Positions 2,147-52,652 of a stretch of DNA of 64,000 nt are shown here, piece after piece. The notes under the pieces were generated by a model, which ran no database searches, was not told the DNA's origin, and saw nothing but the letters and a program-made list of their open reading frames with translations. The translations under genes and the position numbers were made by a program. Position 1 is the stretch's first letter, and the number at the start of each line of letters is the position of its first letter. Origin of the DNA: Eledone cirrhosa. Its lineage: Eukaryota. Location of the stretch: the NCBI GenBank assembly GCA_964016885.1, contig OZ024742.1:354888001-354952000 (forward strand), in the 5' to 3' direction.

Positions 2147-4014
<1,868 letters not shown>

Positions 4015-9710: not shown

Positions 9711-10138
9711 GTAGATAAATCTACCAAGAGTTTACGGTAGTGTCCAATCCGTATGAAGAACTCAATGTAATCCGGATATCATGGAAAGAAGAGATGCAAT
9801 GAAAAATCACTTTCGGTGAAAGATAAACGGAATGCAGAGTCAAGATAAAATATAAAAAAAAAATACAGAGTCAAGATAAAATATTAAAAAAATAATAAAA
9901 AATAAAAAAAATATTTCTGAAGACGGCATATATATGTGTTGGTATGTATATTTAATTTTGATAGTTTGTATAATTTTGTATAATTTTGTACATAGATCTG
10001 TTGAATATGCATGCCAATTCTAACACATATATATCCTAGAGACGATCGTTAAATAATGAACTTTTTTTGTTTAATATAAGGAACTCTTTCATTGTTTTAT
10101 TCATTATTTTTTTAATATCTTATTTTTTTTATATTTTA
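9711..10138. mobile_element. Solo Naiad pLTR terminus with inverted second segment
   Basis: 9711-9870 matches 41224-41370 directly; 9915-10120 is the reverse complement of 41360-41565 and includes CTGAAGA...GAGACGATCGTT. Microsatellites flank both sides. Confidence 0.85.
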
Positions 10139-12800: not shown

Positions 12801-13282
12801 TTCTTCCTGTGTTGATAAATGTAGCAGTAAAATAACGAGGCTGATTTAATGAACAGATTCAACTGTTTCGACGCCTCACTCAAGTAAGGTTGAATATCTC
12901 GAACGGATATTCTTAGTACGTCATGTCTAATATAAGTGGTGAGCTTGTAAACTCCAACAGTATATGTAGTACTGTGAGTGAGGTGCAGGGACTTAATACT
13001 TTCTTATCTGATTGACATGTGCCCAATGAAATTCAGAATTGTAATCAACAGACATAAAACAATTTGAAAAATATTAGTGTAAGATTAGTAGGCTTTCTAA
13101 GGAAATATTTGGAACAAGATCTTAGCATGCTTGTAAGACGAAATAGGTTTTCAAGATTGAAATACGATTATACGTAACGAAATATGTACATCTGTTTTCA
13201 CCAGATGTTAATTCCATCAAGAATATTAAATTGTAATTACCGAAAAGGCTGTTTCTACAAAAAAAAAAAAAATATATATATA

Positions 13283-15873
13283 TCACCACCTCGATCTCCA
13301 CCACCCACGTCCACTTCTTAGACATCTCCGTCGCCTTCGACCCTTCCCACCACTCCCTCGTCACCTCCGCCTTCTTCAAACCCATCGACTCCCACTCCTA
13401 CATCGACTTCACCTATTCCCACCCCACACACACTAAACACTCTATTCCCTACTCCCAACGCCTCAGGATCCGCCGCCTCTGTAGACGAGATGCTGACTTT
13501 GAGTCCCAGGCCCTTTCCCTAGTCAGCCATTTCATCCGCAGAGGTTACTCCCCCTCTCTCGTCCTAACCGCTCTCACCCGCGCCCGTGCTGTCCACCGCT
13601 CCACCACCCTCACCCCACGCCACCGCACAACAACCCACCGTCTCCCCTTCCCCATCACCTACCACCCCTCCACCTACCCCTCCACCGCACCATCCTCCGC
13701 CTCTTCCGACGCCTCCAGTCCGACCACTCCACCTCCCACATCATCCCAGCCCCACCACTCCCCTCCTTCAAACGCGCACGGAATCTCCGCACCCTCCTCG
13801 TCCACAGCTCCCTACCCCCCAACCCACGCTCTCTTCCGCCACCCCCGGTTCCTTTCCCTGTTCTAGGCCCCGCTGCAACACCTGTCCCCACATCACCAAC
13901 ACCACCACCTTCCAGGGTCCCAACGGCCACTCTCTAACTGTCCGGCATGCCTTCCGCTGCACCTCCTCCAACCAAGTCTACGGACTTCGCTGCACTCCGT
14001 GCAGCGCGACTTACGTCGGGTAGAGTAGACGTCGCCTGGCGGACAGAATTACTGAGCACCTCCGCGATATTCGTCTCGATGGTAGTTCCCCCATCGCCCG
14101 CCACTTTGGTGCCCCTGGACATTCCGCACACCATCTCACAGACTGTGGCCTACTCCAATGCCACGGAACACCTGCCACTCTCCTAAGGGTCGAACAACGA
14201 ACCATCTTCACCCTACAGACCCACACTCCCCCGGGTCTGAACTCCCCACACTTATTCCTTTAGCCTTCCATCGCCGCCCTCCCCCCACACATATCCCCCA
14301 CTAACACCACTAACACACCCCTCCTTTTCTCCGCCCACCCCACAACTAACAATACTAACACCTCCACACCACATCCGACTACCCTTCCCCAACTAACATA
14401 CTAATATCCCTCCCTTCTTTTCCTCCACCCCTTCCTTATCACACGCACACACCCACCGGTACATATATACACGCGCTCACACTAAACAAACACCCTGCTA
14501 CCACCACTAACCTTCACCCCCACATATCCACCCCACCACCCCGCAACTAACATCACAAACACCCCCTGACCCCAAGCACACGAACACTCACACCCACTTA
14601 CACCACTCACTCTACACGCAACTAACATCACTAACACCCCCAACCCTACGCACACGAACACACACACCCTCTTACACCACCCACTCTACACACCCTACCA
14701 CCACTGACCCCCACTCACACTCAACCCTTTCACCACCTCCAGTATACTAACACCCACTAACACCCCCTTCACCACACACACACTCATCCAAACACGCACA
14801 CACACACCAGTACACTACACTCCCTCCATCGGGCCCCACATCCTTCTCTCCCCGCTCCACCCACACCCTTTCTCAAACACACATACTTCCCGCTAACACC
14901 TCTACTAATACACACACACCCTCTCCTCACTCCAACTTTCACACCTACCCATCCTCTCCCCTGTCCACAGCACCTCCGCACACACTGACACACCGACTTT
15001 CTTCACTTACCATTCCACCCTACTGCTGCTATATCTCTCTGACCACCTCCCCGCACACACAGACACACAACCCTCCTCCTGCCTTGACCCTCTGACCACT
15101 TCCTGTAGCGCGCGCACCCCACATCTCCCCTTTCCGACCAATTTCTTCACGGATTACACATATGTGAACCTTGATCCCGAGAATCTACCGCATCCCAAGG
15201 ATTTTACTCAGCATTCCACCACATCCTTTTACGGAATTACCTTTAGGACTCTCCCCCGGACATACACCCAAAAACATATTTTTCCCACACGCCACCTACA
15301 TCCACAACACGCATAAACACCACACACACACATGCGTACCACCACATATTTACACATTCAGCCTCCGAAATCCTCTCCCCTTACCCCTCTATCCACACAC
15401 TCACACACATTCCGACCTACACCCCACCCACACACACCTCTTCCTGAACATGCAACCCTGTTCTTCCCCCAACCCTTGCCTTCACATACACACACACACG
15501 TACATCTACACACACACACCACGTTCAGCCCTCCCCGCTCGGACACCCCGTCTCCCTCTCCCATTCAACCCGCCACCACCCCTACACGCCCCACACTCTC
15601 CCACCACCTGTTTTACTCCATTTTAATTTTATTTTGATCATGCCTTTATTTTTAATTTCATTTGCACCGTTTCCTCTCACTCCCCCTCCCTGTTTGCTAT
15701 ATGTCTCTCCAACACTCCCATACACACCCTTGGAACTCTCTTCCCACACACTGTTCACCTGAAGAAGGGCTTATGCCCGAAACGTCGTTCCCCACCACCA
15801 CCCCACTCTCAAGAGCGTGAAACTAATAAACCTTTGTTCGTACTGCCTCTATGTTTTGTTCCCGTTCAATTTT

Positions 15874-35155: not shown

Positions 35156-36248
35156 CAGAGTAATTCGTGGTAGAGTGATGGTAGTAGGAATGTGTCTGTA
35201 CGTGTGTGGGGGTTATTTTAACATGTTAAAGCATATTTTTCAGCTCTTGTCTTATACGCAGAAGTGTGTGTGTGTATGTGTGCGTATATGTCTCTTTGTA
35301 TTTTAATGTACGCGCGTGCATGTGTGTGTGTGTATATATGTGTGTTTGTGTGTGAATGTGTGTGTGTGGGTGGACCAGTACTTTTGTGATACTGGTAAAA
35401 ATGTTGTACATTATTCGATATTTTCAGTAAAAACGATTCTCTCAATAGAACATCAAAAACCTTAATAATAAAAGGTGTGAAATGATATATAGTATTGGCA
35501 TAATACCAAGGTGTGTGTGAGAGTGTTCAGATTGTACGTACTGCAAGGGGAATCCATTAGGCCTTGCCGTATTGGAATACTTGTGTACAAATATGTATGT
35601 GCCCATCAGTGTGCAATGCATGTGTGCGTATATGTATGTATGTGTGTCGGCACGTTTATATCTATAGACATCAAAAGGTATGCACATTTGTGTATATTTG
35701 TGTTGCACCATAGAACATGTGTGTTTACGTATGTCATTGTGTTTATATGTGGATAGAGATGTATGCTGATGTAGGTATGTATGTTGACGTGTGTATGTTG
35801 TGGGTTCGTCTTAGGGAGAAGTGTTTAGATGGGGTCCGTATTTGTTAATAAAGTGAGATTCTTTGCTGATGCGCTGGGTTTGGGTGGCATTATCTTTAAA
35901 TGTGTAGAGGGGACAGATTCTGAAGTTGGGATGGTTTTGGGCGGCACAGGTATCAATGTGTTCACTCAGTGGTATTTTCCTGTATTCCTGTATTTTAATT
36001 TGGGATCTATGGACAGTCATGCTTTGGCGGAGGCTGTTTTTTGTCTGGCCTATGTATTGTACTCGACATCCTGAGCAAGTTAATACATATATTACATTTT
36101 CTGATGCGCGTGTGAAATTGTGTTTTACTATAAACCGTTTTTCTTCTTTGAAATAGAATTCCGAACCCTCTATTAGGTTGATGCATATGCCACAGTTGGG
36201 ACTATCGCACTTTTTTTACTGTGGGTTTCGTTGTTGTGGTTGGCATGT
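34564..36248 (-). mobile_element. Neptune-type PLE fragment (GIY-YIG + 3' UTR/pLTR), flanked by (TA)n
   Basis: KCDSPNCGICINL...NVIYVLTCSGCRVQYIGQT..LRQSMTVHRSQI...IPLSEHIDTC (35811-36230); related to 2201-3863. Confidence 0.88.
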
Positions 36249-36469: not shown

Positions 36470-36796
36470 AACATTATTTCTGAAAACGGCGGGTAGTGAA
36501 GACGTATGTATATTTTCTTACTATAATATTTCGTAGAGATATTTTCCATAGATCAATAATAGAATGGATATACGCGGAACTATCCCCCAGAAACGATCGT
36601 AAATTAATGAACTTTACTATGAATTAACCGTATTTTTTTAATTTCATTGTTTTAATATTTCTATTTTTGACTCTGAATCCAATTAATTATATCGTTGAAA
36701 ATGTATTTTAAAATTTGCTTCATGACATCTTGTACATACGGTTTACATTTAGTTCGTCATACGGCTTAGACCCTACCATTGATAGGTAGATTTATC

Positions 36797-41419: not shown

Positions 41420-41573
41420 TTCATTATTTAACGATCGTTTCTAGGATATATATGTGTTAGAATTGGCATGCATATTCAACAGATCTATGTACAAAATTAT
41501 ACAAAATTATACAAACTATCAAGATTAAATATACATACCAACACATATATACGCCGTCTTCAGAAATAATGAA
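41420..41573 (-). ncRNA. Hammerhead ribozyme with ~115-nt stem II hairpin
   Basis: Perfect 10-bp stem I TTCATTATTT/AAATAATGAA; CTGAAGA; internal hairpin TATATATGTGTT/AACACATATATA; GAAAC GATC GTT. Confidence 0.72.
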
Positions 41574-42201
41574 ATATATTTATTGATAATAACAACAATT
41601 CAAAATTTCAGGTCCGTTTGGGAACAAAATTGACCAATGAAAATACAAAAGGTTTAATGCAGTTCGGTGTGTGTATATACATGTAACTACCCTTACACAT
41701 ATTTTACAAAAATGTATGCACAACTTGTATACGCATACCAAAAGGATGGATGCAAATACAAAATTTCAAGGTTAATGTCTCTGTAAGTTTATAATGCACA
41801 GATAAGATGCGTATAGACACATAAATATGAAATAAGTGTATACACATATTTTCATACTCACACATATCCGTACAATCACACACACACGCGCGTATATGCA
41901 TAAACATACACATAAACTACGAACATACAAACACACACACACCCCCACTCACATATATATATGTGGATATAAAATCCTAAGCACATGGATATTAATTCAC
42001 TCACATAAACACTGGCACACACATTTAGATCAAGATACAGAAATTAGGTGGGAGGGGGGGGAGAGGTCAGTATTCAACGGTTTGGGCAGACTGCTTAATA
42101 TAGATGTATCTATAAACTAAGAAAATAAAAAATAATAAATAATAAATAAACATTAAAAAGGAAAGAAAAGAAAAAGAAAAAGAAAAAAGAAATATATCAA
42201 G

Positions 42202-42204
<3 letters not shown>

Positions 42205-42261
<57 letters not shown>

Positions 42262-42407
42262 CACATACATACACACATATATAGACATATACATATACAA
42301 ACACATACATACATATACACACATCCACACTTAGAACATACATACACACACATATATAAACATATACATATACACACATATATACATATACACACATACA
42401 TATAAAT

Positions 42408-42472
<65 letters not shown>

Positions 42473-42767
42473 CATACATACACACATACATACACATATA
42501 ATCACACATACTATATAGACACACATATATATACACACATACACGCACATATACATACACTTACATACTTATATATATACAGATATACACATACATACCT
42601 ATATATACACACAACTACATACAGACATACATACATACATACAGACAAATACTTACGCATCTATATATCGGTATATACATACAAACACCACTACACTCTC
42701 ACACAACTCAGACATACAAAGAAAAAGGTATATACCTATACACATATACATATACAAATAGAGAAAC

Positions 42768-42850
<83 letters not shown>

Positions 42851-43052
42851 CACATATACACACATACACATACATACACATACATACATGTACACACACA
42901 TAGATATATATACACATACACACATACACACATACATATATAGTCATACACACACATACACCTACACGAACATACACATACACATATATAAAGATATATA
43001 TACACACACACACACACACATACACACACACACATATATATAAAAAATAAAG

Positions 43053-43089
<37 letters not shown>

Positions 43090-43182
43090 ATATACATACA
43101 TATACATACACACATACATAGACATATATGTACATACATACACATACATAGATACATACACACACATATATATAAAAAATAA

Positions 43183-43231
<49 letters not shown>

Positions 43232-43992
43232 GACATATACATACATACACTCACAACATACATACACACATATATACTCATACATAGAATTAGATATATA
43301 ATCATACATACATACGCACTTACATATACTCATATATACAAATACATACGCATCCATATATGCGTATATACATAGAAACACCACTACACCCTCACCCAAC
43401 TCAGACATACAAAGAAAAAGGCATATACATATACATATATACACGCATTAATAGAGATATATATACACATATATATATATATATATATACACACATACAC
43501 TTATATATATATACCCACACACACATACAACCATAAATACACATACAAACACCCACATATACATATATATACACATATATATATATACACACACATAAAA
43601 AACAGACATGCACATATATATTTTTTTACACATATATATACATATATATATACATATACACACCCTCACATATACACACATACACATAAGTTATATTATA
43701 ATAATAAATAATATATATATATACATATATATATACACATACGAACATAGACATATATACACACATAGATATATAAATATATATATATACACATACATAT
43801 ACACACACACATATACACACTCACATATATATGTGTGTGCACACACACATATATACACATACACACATATACACATAAACACATATATGTGTATACATGC
43901 ACACACACACATATATCCACATAGATACGAAGATAGACATATAAATAGAGAGACATACATATATATACACACACACATATACATACATACAT

Positions 43993-44041
<49 letters not shown>

Positions 44042-44118
44042 TACACATACACATATATATACACATGCATATATACACATATACACATACATACACACAT
44101 ATATATATACACACACAA
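42205..44118. repeat. Compound (CA)/(TA)/(TACA) low-complexity tract with internal duplications
   Basis: Direct reading; e.g. 42655-42735 is repeated at 43347-43425. Confidence 0.9.
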
Positions 44119-45355
44119 TCTTACATTCTTATTTGCATGCGCATATATGTATTTTTATATTCAGATATAAATACCCAAACATATATACACCTACCTACAT
44201 ATATATTCATACATACACGCTTACAAACACAGATGATAATAGTATGGGACAAGGGGGGGGGGGGGTGATGAAGGGGATTATAGTAAATATATGTTTCAAG
44301 AAACATAGAATATTATCCGTATCTGGATCCAATGTATGTTTTTACATAGTTTCAGTGTTAGGAAATACAATAAACAAGAAATAAGGCAAAATTTATGCAT
44401 TTCAAAATAAATAAGTATACCATTAATTATATGTTAACTAAACTAAAGATAGTTAACATATTGATTTATAAGGTGTAAATTAGTTAGGTTTATAATATTT
44501 GAAGCAGAATTTTGAAGTTAAATAGTAGTAGAGTATTAATTATAGTATAACTAAATTAAAGTTAATAACGTTATGGTATCAATATTAGGAAATGAATTTA
44601 GTAATAGGGAAAAAACAAATAAAGTATTACATCGGTAGTAGAATATAAATTATAGGTTAACTAAATTAAAAGTGATATATTTATTTCTATAGTATATGTT
44701 AATTAGGTATATAATAAATAAAACAGATATTGTATTTTATCAATAGCAGAATATAATTATATGCAAATAGAAATCAAAATTAATACATATACATATACAT
44801 ATACATACACATATATATATACATATATATACATATATATATACATATATACACATATACACACACACACACATACACATACACATATACATATACATAT
44901 TTTTTCAAAAATTGCAAAGAATATATTAACTAGGTATATATCCAAAACACATCCCATTCTATGATTACATGACATTCTGCAATTCGTCTGTATAAGGATA
45001 CTAATTTTAAGCCAATTAAATTAAATTTTTAGGTTGATTAAAATTAAAACCAAATTATAAATATATTTCTAAAATGTATATTAATTAGGTCTATAATACT
45101 AAAAATTATTTCTCTGTCATTGGATACACGATATTTTGTTATATTTTATCTGTAAAAGAATTATAATAAAAGGTTTAAATAAATTAAAATTAATCTATAA
45201 ATTAAATTACTAAGTATATATTAGTAATATTTAAAGGTTTTTCACAATTTATGATTACATAATATTTTATATTCTCATCTGTAATAGAATTTTAATTAAA
45301 TTAAATTTATAGGTTAACTAACATTTAAATTAAATTAATTTCTAAAATAATGTTA

Positions 45356-49075: not shown

Positions 49076-49549
49076 GTAGGGGTGTTAGTGGGATGAGTGA
49101 GTGTGGAGCGGGGAGAGAAGGGTGTGTGTGGTTCTATGGAGGGAGTGTGGTGTACTGGTGTGTGTGTAGTTTGGTGAAGAGGTGTTAGTGGGTGTTAGTA
49201 TACGGGAGGTGGGGAGGAGTGGAATGCAGGTGTGAGTGGGGGTTAGTGGGGGTAGGGTGTGTAGAGTTGGTGGTGTACGAGGGTGTGTGGGTACGTATGC
49301 GTGCGGTTGGAGGGTGTTAGTGATGTTAGTTGCGTGTGGGGTGGGTGGTGTAAGTGGGTGCGTGTGATAAGGAGGGAGAGGAGGAGAAGAGGGGAGGGAA
49401 GGGATGTTAGTATGTTAGTTGGGGAAGGGTGGTCAGATGAGGGGTGGAGTGGAGGTGTTAGTATTGTTAGTGTGGGGTGGGCGGTGAAAAGGAGGGGTGT
49501 GTTAGTGGTGTTAGTGGGGGATAAGTGTGGGGGAGGGGGTCGGTCGAAC

Positions 49550-52343
49550 GCTGAAGGAATAAGGGTGGGGAGTTCAGGCCGGGGGGAGTGTGGGTCTGTA
49601 AGATGAAGACAGTACGTTGTTCGACCGTAAGGCGATGGGCGGGTGTTCCGTGGCACTGGAGTAGGCCACAGACTGTGAGATGGCGTGCGGAGTGTCCAGG
49701 GCCACCAAAGTGGCGGGCGATGGGGGAACTGCCCCCGAGACGAATGTCCCGGAGGTGCTCCGTGACTCGGTCCGCCAGGCGACGTCCCGTCCGTCCAACA
49801 TAAGTCGCGCTGCACTCCGTGCAACGAAGCCCGTAGACTAGGTTGGAGGAGGTGCAGCGGAAGGTATGCCGGACCGAGAGAGGGTGGCCGTTGGGACCCT
49901 GGAAGGTGGTGGTGTTGGTGATGTGGGGACAGGTGTTGCAGCGGGGCCTAGAACAGGGGAAGGAACCGGGGGGGAAACGGAGCGTGGGTTGGGGGGTAGG
50001 GAGCTGTAGACGAGGAGGGTGCGGAGATTGCGTGCGCGTTTGAAGGAGGGGAGAGGTGGGGTTGGTAAGATGTGGGAGGTGGAGGGGTCGGACTGGAGGC
50101 GTCGGAAGAGGCGGCGGATGGTGCGGTGGAGGGGTAAGGTTGAGGGGTGGTAGGTGATGGGGAAGGGGAGACGATGGGTGGGTCTGCGGTCGCATGGGGT
50201 GAGGGTGGTGGAGCGGGGGATAGCACGGGCGCGGGTGAGAGCGGTGTGGACGAGAGAGGGGGGGGGTAACCTCTGCGGATGAAATGGCTGACTAGGGAAA
50301 GGGCCTGGGACTCGAAGTCAGCATCTCGGCTACAGAGGCGGCGGATACTGACAAGTTGGGAGTAGGGAAACGAGAGTTTAGTGTGTGTGGGGTGGGAAGA
50401 GGTGAAGTCGAGGTAAGAGTGGGAGTCGGTGTGGTTTGAAGAAGGCGGAGGTGACGAGGGAGTGGTGGGAGGGGTCGAAGGCGACGGAGATGTCCAAGAA
50501 GTTGACGTGGGTGGTGGAGATAGAGGTGGTGAAGTGGAGGGAGGGGTGGAAGGAGCAGAAGAAGGAGAGAAAGGAGTCGAGCTGTACTCGGGTGAGGATC
50601 ATGGCTCCGATACAGTCGTCAATGTAACGACCGTACAGTTCGGGCGTGGGGCCGGTGTACTGGGCAAATATTTGGGCCTCAACATGGCCAACAAAAAATT
50701 GGCATAGTTCGGGCCCATTCGTGTGACCATGGCTACCCCCGTGACCTGTTGGTAAAACTCTCCCGAGAAGGAGAAACAATTTAGGGTGAGGACCAGCTCG
50801 GCGAGGCGAAGGAGGGTGGGGGTGACTGGCATGGTCGAGGGGCAAAGGTCGAGGTAGTGTTTGAGGGCGCGAAGGCCGTCGGCGTGGGGGATGACGGTAT
50901 AGAGGGACTTGATGTCTAGGGTGAAGAGGAATGGCTGAGGGCCGGGTAGGTAGGTGAAGGAGTCGAAAAGGCGTAGGGCGTGGTTGGTGTCAGAGATGTG
51001 GGAGGGGAGGGTGGTGACAAGGGGGGCGAGGAGGGCGTCGAGAAAGGCGGAGATGAGTTCGTTGGGGCAGTTGCAAGCGGAGACGATGGGGCGGCCGGGG
51101 TTGTCGGGTTTGTGGAGTTTGGGGAGGAAGTAGATGGTGGAGGTGCGGGGGGTGCGGACGATGAGGTGGGAAGCGGTGGGGGGAGGAGGGAGGAGGCGAT
51201 AAGGTCTTTGATGGTGGAGGAGACTTGTTGTTGGTAGAGGGGGGTGGGATCGGAGGGTAGAGGGCGGTAAAAGAGGGGATTACAGAGCTGCCTGAGGGCT
51301 TCGGCCGTGTAGAGGTCCGTGCGCCATACCACCACGGCGCCTCCCTTGTCCGCCGGTTTGATGACGATGTCATCTCGGCTACGGAGGGAGCGGAGAGCGA
51401 GGTGTTCGCCCCGTGAGATATTGTGCCGTTTGGAACGGTGGCGGAAGTCGAAACGATTTACTGCGCTACGGCTGGCATCGACGAAGGCGTCCAGGGTGCT
51501 AAATTGCTCTGGGGCCGGCGTCCAAGATGATGGTCGTCGGCCCAGGGCGAGAAACGGGTCTGGGGCGTCCGGAGCCGGTGGCGTTCGGCTGAAATGTGCC
51601 TGTAGCTTAGTGCGTCGCACGAATCGCTCGACTTCCGTTCGGGTTCGGGACTCGTCGCTGAGCGGAGTGTGGGGTATGAAGCGAAGGCCTCTACTAAGGA
51701 GTGAGCGCTCAGGTGCGGAGAGGGGGAGGTCAGGGGGTATGGTGACAACAAGGGGTGGGGTTTGGGTGTTTGGGGACGGAAGGGAGGGTGTGGTGAGGGG
51801 TGGAGATTGGGTGGGGATGGGGGTCGGGGGAGAGTTGGGGAGTGGTGGGCGTATGGGGGTGGGCGGGTGGTGGTGGATGAGGGGGGAGTGAGTGTAGCTT
51901 GCGGGCTTTGGTGGAGCTGAGGAACGAGAAGAGGTTGTGGTTGAGGTTGTGGATGAAGGAGAGGATGGCTTGGGCGAGGAGGGGGTGACAGGTGGAGTAA
52001 AGGCGGAGGAGGGTGGGGGTCAGTTGGTGGTCAAGTAGGCGGAGGGTGGAACGGGAGGCGCGGATGGAGTTGCGCATCAGAAGGCGTGTGGATCGGGTGA
52101 GGATACGTTGCGCGGAGGGGGAAGCAGCGGGGGAGGGGTGGAAGTGTAGACGGAAGCCAAGGGGGATAAGGTGGTGGCGGAGGCAGTGGCTGAGGAAATG
52201 GATGTGGCTGGAGTGCCGGGTTTTGGCGAAGAGAAGGTAGGAGAGTTGAAGGGCGGAGGGGAGATAGCAGGGTGGAAGGAGGGGGTGAGGAAAAGTTTGA
52301 GGCGATTGTGGAGTTGGTGGAGAAAGGATCTCAGGTTGGCCAT
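49550..52343 (-). pseudogene. Frameshifted PLE polyprotein ORF (RT + GIY-YIG)
   Basis: MANLRSFLHQL; SHIHFLSHCLRHHLIPLGF; IKPADKGGAVVVW; FLPKLHK..PGRPIVS; TLDIKSLYT; QQVTGVAM.TRMGPNYAN; RYIDD; CSRPRCNTC; LVYGLRCTECSATYVGRTGRRL. Spread over several frames. Confidence 0.92.
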
Positions 52344-52504
52344 GATGGGCGTTGGGTGAAAGCAGGGTGAGGGATGAGAGGGCGGGGGTGTGAAGCGGGT
52401 GGAGTGAACGAAGGGGTGAGTGCGAAGGATAGGCAGAGACGGGGAAGGGAAAAAGAAACAGAAACACGTAGGGAGGGGGGAGTAAACACCGGAAAATTAA
52501 AGAC

Positions 52505-52652
52505 AAAAAATCATAAAGGTAATAACACAGGCGATCGTGAACAAAAAAATCACAGACATATCATAAAGGTAATGACACAGGCGATCGTGAACAAAAAAAT
52601 CACAGAAATATCATAAAGGTAATGACACAGGCGATCGTGAACAAAAAATCAT
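52505..52652. repeat. ~50-nt tandem repeat (x3) in the PLE 5' leader
   Basis: atcataaaggtaat(a/g)acacaggcgatcgtgaacaaaaaa occurs three times. Confidence 0.92.

Follow-up and report, generated by a model that had tools for sequence, protein, structure and literature searches.

Penelope-like elements (PLEs) carry hammerhead motifs in their pseudo-LTRs. The minimal forms (Cervera and de la Pena, 2014; PMC4209133) combine a helix I of 2-5 bp with a helix II of 6-8 bp that is closed by G10.1-C11.1 and contains a bulged base; their palindromic stem III is suited to dimers, and U3-A8 cores occur naturally among them. The Hydra-clade motifs printed in File S2 of Craig et al. (2021; PMC8557442) are type I hammerheads with a short, near-palindromic stem III, a frequent mismatch at the base of stem II and loops II of 3-10 nt. 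Their host elements are mostly below 3 kb, target (TA)n and have tails of 30-40 nt. Enlarged stem-loops II are found in PLE-X1_sMoe and PLE-X1_sTam, plant elements of the EN-minus type in which about 50 nt separate the core halves, the longest printed PLE hammerhead spacers that we found (PMC8557442, File S2).

Other PLEs illustrate how transcription and reverse transcription meet in the pseudo-LTR. Drosophila virilis Penelope (PMC2377424) and Chlamys-3_cRei (PMC8557442) have an internal pseudo-LTR promoter and start site, a DPE-like motif (RGACGTGY in Penelope; PMC2377424, section 15) and a retained 5′ UTR intron that overlaps the promoter. In the D. virilis element the hammerhead comes after the intron, whose end lies at helix I. 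For the Anolis Poseidon element PAc, from another PLE clade, two start sites of the reverse transcriptase (RT) define the tail, both strands are extended and the template is uncut; its hammerhead overlaps the ORF start, and its activity is demonstrated and protein-dependent (Frangieh et al., 2024; PMC11167929).

The window analysed here, 64,000 nt of the Eledone cirrhosa assembly (contig OZ024742.1, positions 354,888,001 to 354,952,000), holds a motif at 41573-41420 on the minus strand that shares the type I layout, the pseudo-LTR location, the short palindromic stem III, the mismatched stem II base, the host protein motifs and the (TA)n target of the Hydra-clade hammerheads, and the dimer-suited stem III and U3-A8 variants of the minimal ones. 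It differs in scale. A paired spacer of mostly 98-116 nt stands in place of a small loop II, giving a helix II of about 40 bp with C.A at 10.1/11.1; stem I has 9-10 bp, the repeat unit measures about 6.6 kb (family A) or 4.1 kb (family B), and the tail about 137 nt. PLE hammerheads as such, mismatched pairs at 10.1/11.1 and introns in the 5′ UTR are already known, as is the U3-A8 core, which a first-pass annotation of this DNA had noted and which was published in 2014 (PMC4209133). A covarying stem II of 100-115 nt is new, as are sharp starts of genomic copies 7 nt before C3, often with an extra G. Searches of mostly open-access literature found no report of a stem II above 100 nt or of a hammerhead overlapping a start site, though the supplements of PMC4209133 may show longer variants.

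The motif comprises a full type I core with a 115-nt hairpin between its halves and a 10-bp stem I that closes it. All of the following features lie on the minus strand. The 5′ strand of stem I (41573-41564), which is backed by covariation and of which only the last 7 of 10 nt would belong to the inferred transcript, leads into the 5′ half of the catalytic core, C3-A9 (CUGAAGA, 41563-41557). The giant stem II (41556-41442) has C.A at pair 1, C.C at pair 4, a covarying basal helix, a middle helix and an invariant apical motif. It is followed at 41441-41430 by GAAAC-GAUC-GUU, that is, the 3′ half of the core (G12-A15.1), stem III and the GUU triplet; the predicted cut falls between 41430 and 41429, and the 3′ strand of stem I occupies 41429-41420. 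Stem III, ACGATCGT, is a palindrome in the consensus, as the first-pass annotation had stated, with a self-duplex energy of -10 kcal/mol. The same annotation had described both core halves, the 115-nt spacer, the perfect 10-bp stem I and a long-hairpin insert, and all are present: the region has a folding energy of -46.3 kcal/mol (z -6.3), a stability equalled in 0 of 200 shuffles. Its expectation that short-stem descriptors would miss the motif is likewise borne out, as the Rfam covariance models give no hammerhead match here even at E≤10. The long-stem hammerhead motif is confirmed as real.

Each of eight subfamily consensuses keeps the core C3 U4 G5 A6 N7 G8 A9 / G12 A13 A14 A15.1 / U16.1 H17 (or its U3-A8 form), with variation confined to N7, H17 and the 3-8 pair, and no consensus has G at H17. 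Stem II is irregular throughout at its base, a feature on which the first-pass annotation did not remark. G10.1-C11.1 is the usual, though not obligatory, closing pair of hammerhead stem II; it is absent here, pair 1 (10.1/11.1) being C.A in seven of the eight subfamilies and U-A in C3, while pair 4 is C.C or C.U in every one. No canonical loops for a loop I-loop II contact are evident in the long-stem motif, and, as speculation, a tertiary contact might be made by the conserved C.C/C.U of pair 4. A C.C mismatch at pair 4 is also common to several hammerhead families of this genome with 26-31-nt spacers.

The first-pass annotation saw the same layout at 23061-23200, 36472-36609 and 9917-10060. 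Sites do exist there, but none is intact. The subfamily A1 copy at 9912-10060 (plus strand), accompanied by an inverted tail arm at about 9711-9861, carries A13G (GAGAC), retains only 5 bp of stem I and starts at -5. The subfamily B1 copy at 23059-23202 (plus), which goes with a B-family ORF whose 3′ end lies at about 19550-21894, does have the U3-A8 core that had been described, with a 107-nt spacer, but its stem III is mutated (GATCAT). The subfamily C1 copy at 36472-36609 (plus) begins at -7/-8; its 3-8 pair is a C3.A8 mismatch and its stem I is broken. A fifth, damaged copy had been overlooked: a second B1 copy with mutated stem III, at about 16260-16119 (minus), lies on the inverted arm of the same B insertion as the copy at 23059-23202. 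The window also contains short-stem hammerheads of other repeat families at 25091-25121 (+), about 47021 (-), 29077 (+) and about 38168 (-), with spacers of 14, 14, 31 and 36 nt respectively. Weak Rfam HH9 matches below the gathering threshold, with degenerate cores, lie at 32964-33035 (-, 31 bits), 33093-33133 (+, 22) and 33397-33467 (+, 28) within an inverted repeat that adjoins an assembly gap.

The motif is abundant. Counted with exact sequence patterns, one subfamily matches 8,616 times in the 3.0-Gb genome, and two further group patterns, which overlap slightly, match 1,973 and 1,496 times; all controls gave 0, and together the three patterns put the copy number well above ten thousand. 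A descriptor applied to 1.14 Mb, motif-enriched through targeted choice of loci rather than a random sample, found 174 distinct motifs against one each in the reversed and complemented controls. Hammerhead-type spacers in this sequence form a series of 12-14, 20-36, 46-61, 74-75, 82 and 98-116 nt. Recurring motifs of the same type with a stem II of 46-82 nt that are not linked to ORFs occur, for example, at L165:3230, L077:100, L109, L160:6464 and L176:915.

Covariation across subfamilies indicates what is maintained. The eight subfamilies were built from 89 distinct copies with spacers of 98-116 nt, except one of 126. Copies were chosen by the 3′ core, a 5′ core in which a single mismatch was allowed, and then YRGC, so that these anchor positions are not independent evidence. 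RNAalifold missed basal stem II because MAFFT misaligned it; pairing was scored in core-anchored, ungapped registers over nine pairs of stem I and nine of basal stem II (2, 3 and 5-11). In both helices all 72 of 72 pairs form across the eight consensuses. Swapping 3′ strands among subfamilies matches this full pairing in only 288 (stem I) and 8 (basal stem II) of 40,320 permutations, and no shifted register exceeds 36 of 56. Parsimony on the endonuclease tree, with one open fork resolved arbitrarily, requires at least 11 double changes, and G-U occurs 10 times against 0 for A-C, which marks the sense RNA strand. The 3-8 pair also swaps between C3-G8 and U3-A8, so the covariation in stem I and at 3-8 on which the first-pass annotation had staked its claim is found in both places. 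In a 34-row MAFFT alignment, 97.9% of cells pair and 44 cells show a double change against 10.3 in shuffles (0/500), whereas counting pairs instead of cells gives 5 with a double change, no more than shuffles yield (83/500). Stem III is invariant and therefore shows no covariation. The apical GAU..UGUA/UACA..AUC motif of stem II is nearly invariant without covariation as well, which leaves its pairing unsupported and implies that its sequence matters. Selection maintains the fold of the sense-strand RNA, in which the hammerhead core is intact.

The host could be identified from its protein. Between tandem motifs spaced about 6.6 kb apart lies an intact 813-aa ORF, unrecognised by Pfam, with an RT followed by a GIY-YIG endonuclease at the C-terminus and with RWR at 37, DKT at 115, CxCx5C at 673, SYIG at 706, CxxC at 771 and CxH at 799. 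The Hydra clade is diagnosed by a C-terminal GIY-YIG, RWK-like and DKT motifs, a CxCx5C linker, and CxxC and CxH close to the C-terminal end (PMC8557442, section 11), and Naiads by an N-terminal endonuclease, DKA and a CX2-5CxxC finger (PMC8557442, sections 5-6). A search of the ORF for DKA/DKG and the CX2-5CxxC finger gave no match, nor is there an N-terminal endonuclease; by eye, the N-terminus resembles published Hydra proteins. Insertion in (TA)n and the presence of pseudo-LTR and inverted copies are further Hydra-clade traits that this element displays. By these sequence diagnostics the host is a Hydra-clade PLE. The first-pass reading of a giant, covarying stem II hammerhead-type fold in PLE pseudo-LTRs thus stands, but its assignment to Naiad does not, being ruled out by the C-terminal endonuclease, DKT and CxCx5C together with the missing DKA and CX2-5CxxC. 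With a Hydra-clade host, the finding is silent on the missing hammerheads of Naiads.

The copy at 41573-41420 is the 3′ pseudo-LTR of a 5′-truncated element spanning about 46910-41221 (minus). Its truncated ORF (46910-45356; C-terminal part of the RT plus GIY-YIG) is 94% identical to the intact one, and is followed by a long, microsatellite-rich 3′ UTR with the upstream part of the pseudo-LTR (45355-41574) and, beyond the motif, by a tail of about 137 nt (41358-41221) that lies between two preferred insertion 3′ ends and finishes in (TA)n. The 3′ UTR of family A measures 3.2-3.8 kb, compared with 0.6-1.3 kb in related families, and consists largely of microsatellites that move with the element (41574-45355; L031:4423-8170). 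Motifs of A, B and D are linked to ORF starts, and ORF ends are linked to those of A, B, C1, C2, C3, E and D. In an endonuclease tree of local and database sequences, the 12 rows of the giant-stem group, one of which (L103) lacks a motif linkage of its own, form a single clade (96/95) apart from family D. Family D (L127-L154) is a Hydra family with a 75-nt stem II, U3-A8, U.U at 10.1/11.1 and a 4-bp stem I. The host ORF has 118 homologues at the protein level; two metagenome scans returned no relatives, and near-identical low-depth contigs from two other organisms were left out as support.

Remnants of other PLEs are also present. Stop-terminated GIY-YIG fragments with a CX2-5CxxC finger at 3041-3553 (-) and 35811-36215 (-) come from another clade, Neptune-like or Naiad; they were rejected as motif hosts as the motifs near them are on the other strand, with microsatellite in between. 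A fragmented, C-rich PLE with RT, C-terminal GIY-YIG and a CxxxxCxxC linker occupies 13237-14275 and 49300-52560.

Where genomic copies begin proved informative. Genome-wide patterns found a non-native base at -8 in 1,730 matches versus 134 at -9 and 340 at -7, the three patterns differing in their allowed letter sets. Among the first 100 matches at -8, 29 have G as that base, compared with 6/100 and 5/100 in the other two (Fisher p 8e-8, pooled). At 20 inspected sites, the extra G is inexplicable by the opposite arm in 9 and possibly templated by it in 11. Among 30 C/E-type copies, 28 are true junctions at -7, 12 of them with G (5 unexplained by the opposite arm); 23 examined copies of subfamily B show no clear -7 pile-up. 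Of 103 copies, 25 reach past the 300 nt examined and at least 21 begin 5-7 nt ahead of the core, a minimum since AT-rich flanks over-extend the alignment; none begins at the predicted cut. The 30 of 568 non-U17 matches that were inspected show no pile-up at the cut: 27 were A17 subfamily members or point variants, two were fold-back inversions and one was a junction near the cut. At five loci (L202, L220, L325-L327) the hammerhead interior is inverted between the paired strands, consistent with fold-back switching by the RT.

Copies end at two places. In 30 downstream-anchored copies, 16 ends lie at +59 to +67 from the cut and 10 at +201/202, while three alignments run into microsatellite and one into the ORF. 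Inverted pairs often carry one arm of each kind, as two RT start sites would lead one to expect (PMC11167929), and the absence of starts at the cut, together with 3′ ends at about +64 and +201, matches the two-start, uncut-template model of that study. The RNAs copied into the genome were uncut, and the RT started about 64 or 201 nt past the cut.

Reverse transcriptases add a base opposite the RNA cap. The simplest reading of the copy starts would be that transcripts are capped, begin with the A of TCA and serve as template uncut; the equivalent position in the window copy is 41570 (minus), 7 nt before C3. Initiation there by RNA polymerase II, with the RT running off the end and often adding a G opposite the cap, is in our judgement probable. 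Neither an alternative hammerhead cut nor a 3′ splice site accounts for the -7 end, the first for want of a complementary arm and the second for want of a preceding AG.

The region past this start contains promoter- and splice-like signals. Subfamily C1 has AGACGT at +28 to +33 from the inferred start, resembling the Penelope DPE; the match is exact only in C1 and weaker in other subfamilies. Within stem II, the segment 41538-41485 (minus) is intron-like, with a donor-like GTATGT that is predicted to be buried, a branch-like TTGAT and an acceptor-like ACATAG. A donor-like GTA[ATG]GT lies at +32 to +34 in all eight consensuses, predicted base-paired, and E has another at +29. The ACATAG site (+74 to +87) is present in 8/8 and the branch-like site in 7/8; GTATGT is common in this microsatellite-rich genome. 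This short putative intron would span just 42-54 nt. Further acceptor-like sites lie nearer the ATG: ATTTAG about 36 nt before it, conserved in A and B, and a strong one in family D, 40-45 nt before it and just past the tail end. The A2 5′ UTR has nine upstream AUGs, eight of them past the donor-like site. Regex searches of the examined loci for spliced genomic copies gave 0, and three genomic matches to the short splice junction were all inversion junctions; as PLEs retain introns, the absence of spliced copies is weak evidence either way. Unlike in D. virilis, the start site here would lie in stem I and the donor-like site of a putative intron inside stem II. The first-pass annotation suggested RT binding as a role for the insert; the data point rather to an overlap with promoter and splice signals.

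Folding predictions further suggest that the motif is held off. A decoy 35-50 nt past the cut (41393-41372, minus, in the window copy), complementary to the 3′ strand of stem I, is predicted to capture that strand in all eight subfamilies. In RNA starting at -7, predicted stem I has P≤0.05 in A, C and E and forms in B; with upstream sequence included, its probability just after the cut is 0.67-0.99. The active fold of the monomer is predicted to cost 1.2-3.2 kcal/mol.

From these observations we narrowly favour a normally-off, conditional hammerhead at the capped 5′ end of a Hydra-clade PLE RNA, whose stem II would also hold promoter elements and a buried donor. Stem I would be unstable in RNA from -7 in A, C and E, and the decoy would displace it once about 60 nt had been made. 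Cutting would then be possible only within a brief window, in dimers joined by the palindromic stem III ACGAUCGU, or in RNA bound by protein as in PAc; on these predictions, the motif has an even chance of cutting at all. By hiding the donor, a folded stem II may favour RNA that stays unspliced and can be copied. The mRNA would come from splicing to the acceptor close to the ATG, which would take out the cut site along with the two RT start sites and the majority of upstream AUGs; we hold this tentative proposal, donor hiding included, at somewhat less than even strength. A full three-way cap switch, in which folded unspliced RNA serves as RT template, spliced RNA as mRNA and cutting removes the capped leader, is rather unlikely as a whole.

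Three other accounts compete with the conditional hammerhead. The motif may be catalytically dead or negligibly active, serving as a structural signal for RT-endonuclease binding or packaging with no cleavage role. The C.A at the base of stem II, replacing the most conserved pair of that stem, fits this account, as do the lack of copies starting at the cut and the predicted off state through decoy and short stem I; moreover, insertion in vitro was unaffected by ribozyme mutants of the anole element (PMC11167929). A pure binding site would nevertheless have no need for variation that obeys catalytic rules, with N7 and H17 free, 3-8 compensated and H17 never G. Mismatched 10.1/11.1 pairs also occur in published Hydra motifs, and U-U at 10.1/11.1 supports activity. 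This account seems unlikely. A constitutive processing ribozyme that reduces multimeric or read-through RNA to unit length, with a long stem II tolerated and paired only for core folding, is the standard proposal for PLE hammerheads and agrees with the high predicted stem I probability when upstream sequence is present and with spacers that span 12 to 116 nt in this genome. Against it, genomic copies neither begin nor finish at the cut, the apical motif and the donor-like site are conserved in sequence in 8/8 subfamilies, and the decoy is conserved too, which makes it decidedly improbable. Least probable is that the hairpin and its compensations are by-products of palindrome correction through RT fold-back template switching, with the -7 pile-up a snap-back stop of the cDNA: inversions at stem I do exist (2/30 non-U17 matches and 3/3 splice-junction matches) and shifted registers still allow partial pairing of the AT-alternating helix (up to 36/56), yet pairs 1 and 4 keep their fixed mismatches without any correction, the G-U excess marks the sense RNA strand, and the stop is one base sharp and carries the extra G.

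Rfam misses a motif with more than ten thousand copies, and hammerhead censuses consequently undercount; 'half-core' cases in other PLEs merit a renewed search that allows long spacers. PLE start sites could be mapped from DNA alone by means of the extra-G pile-up. The Eledone family provides a covariation-backed natural test case, with start site, ribozyme motif, donor-like site and RT starts within about 350 nt and in eight natural variants. The role of PLE hammerheads and the reason for intron retention in PLEs are both called unresolved in PMC8557442; the three-way switch, if true, would explain both.
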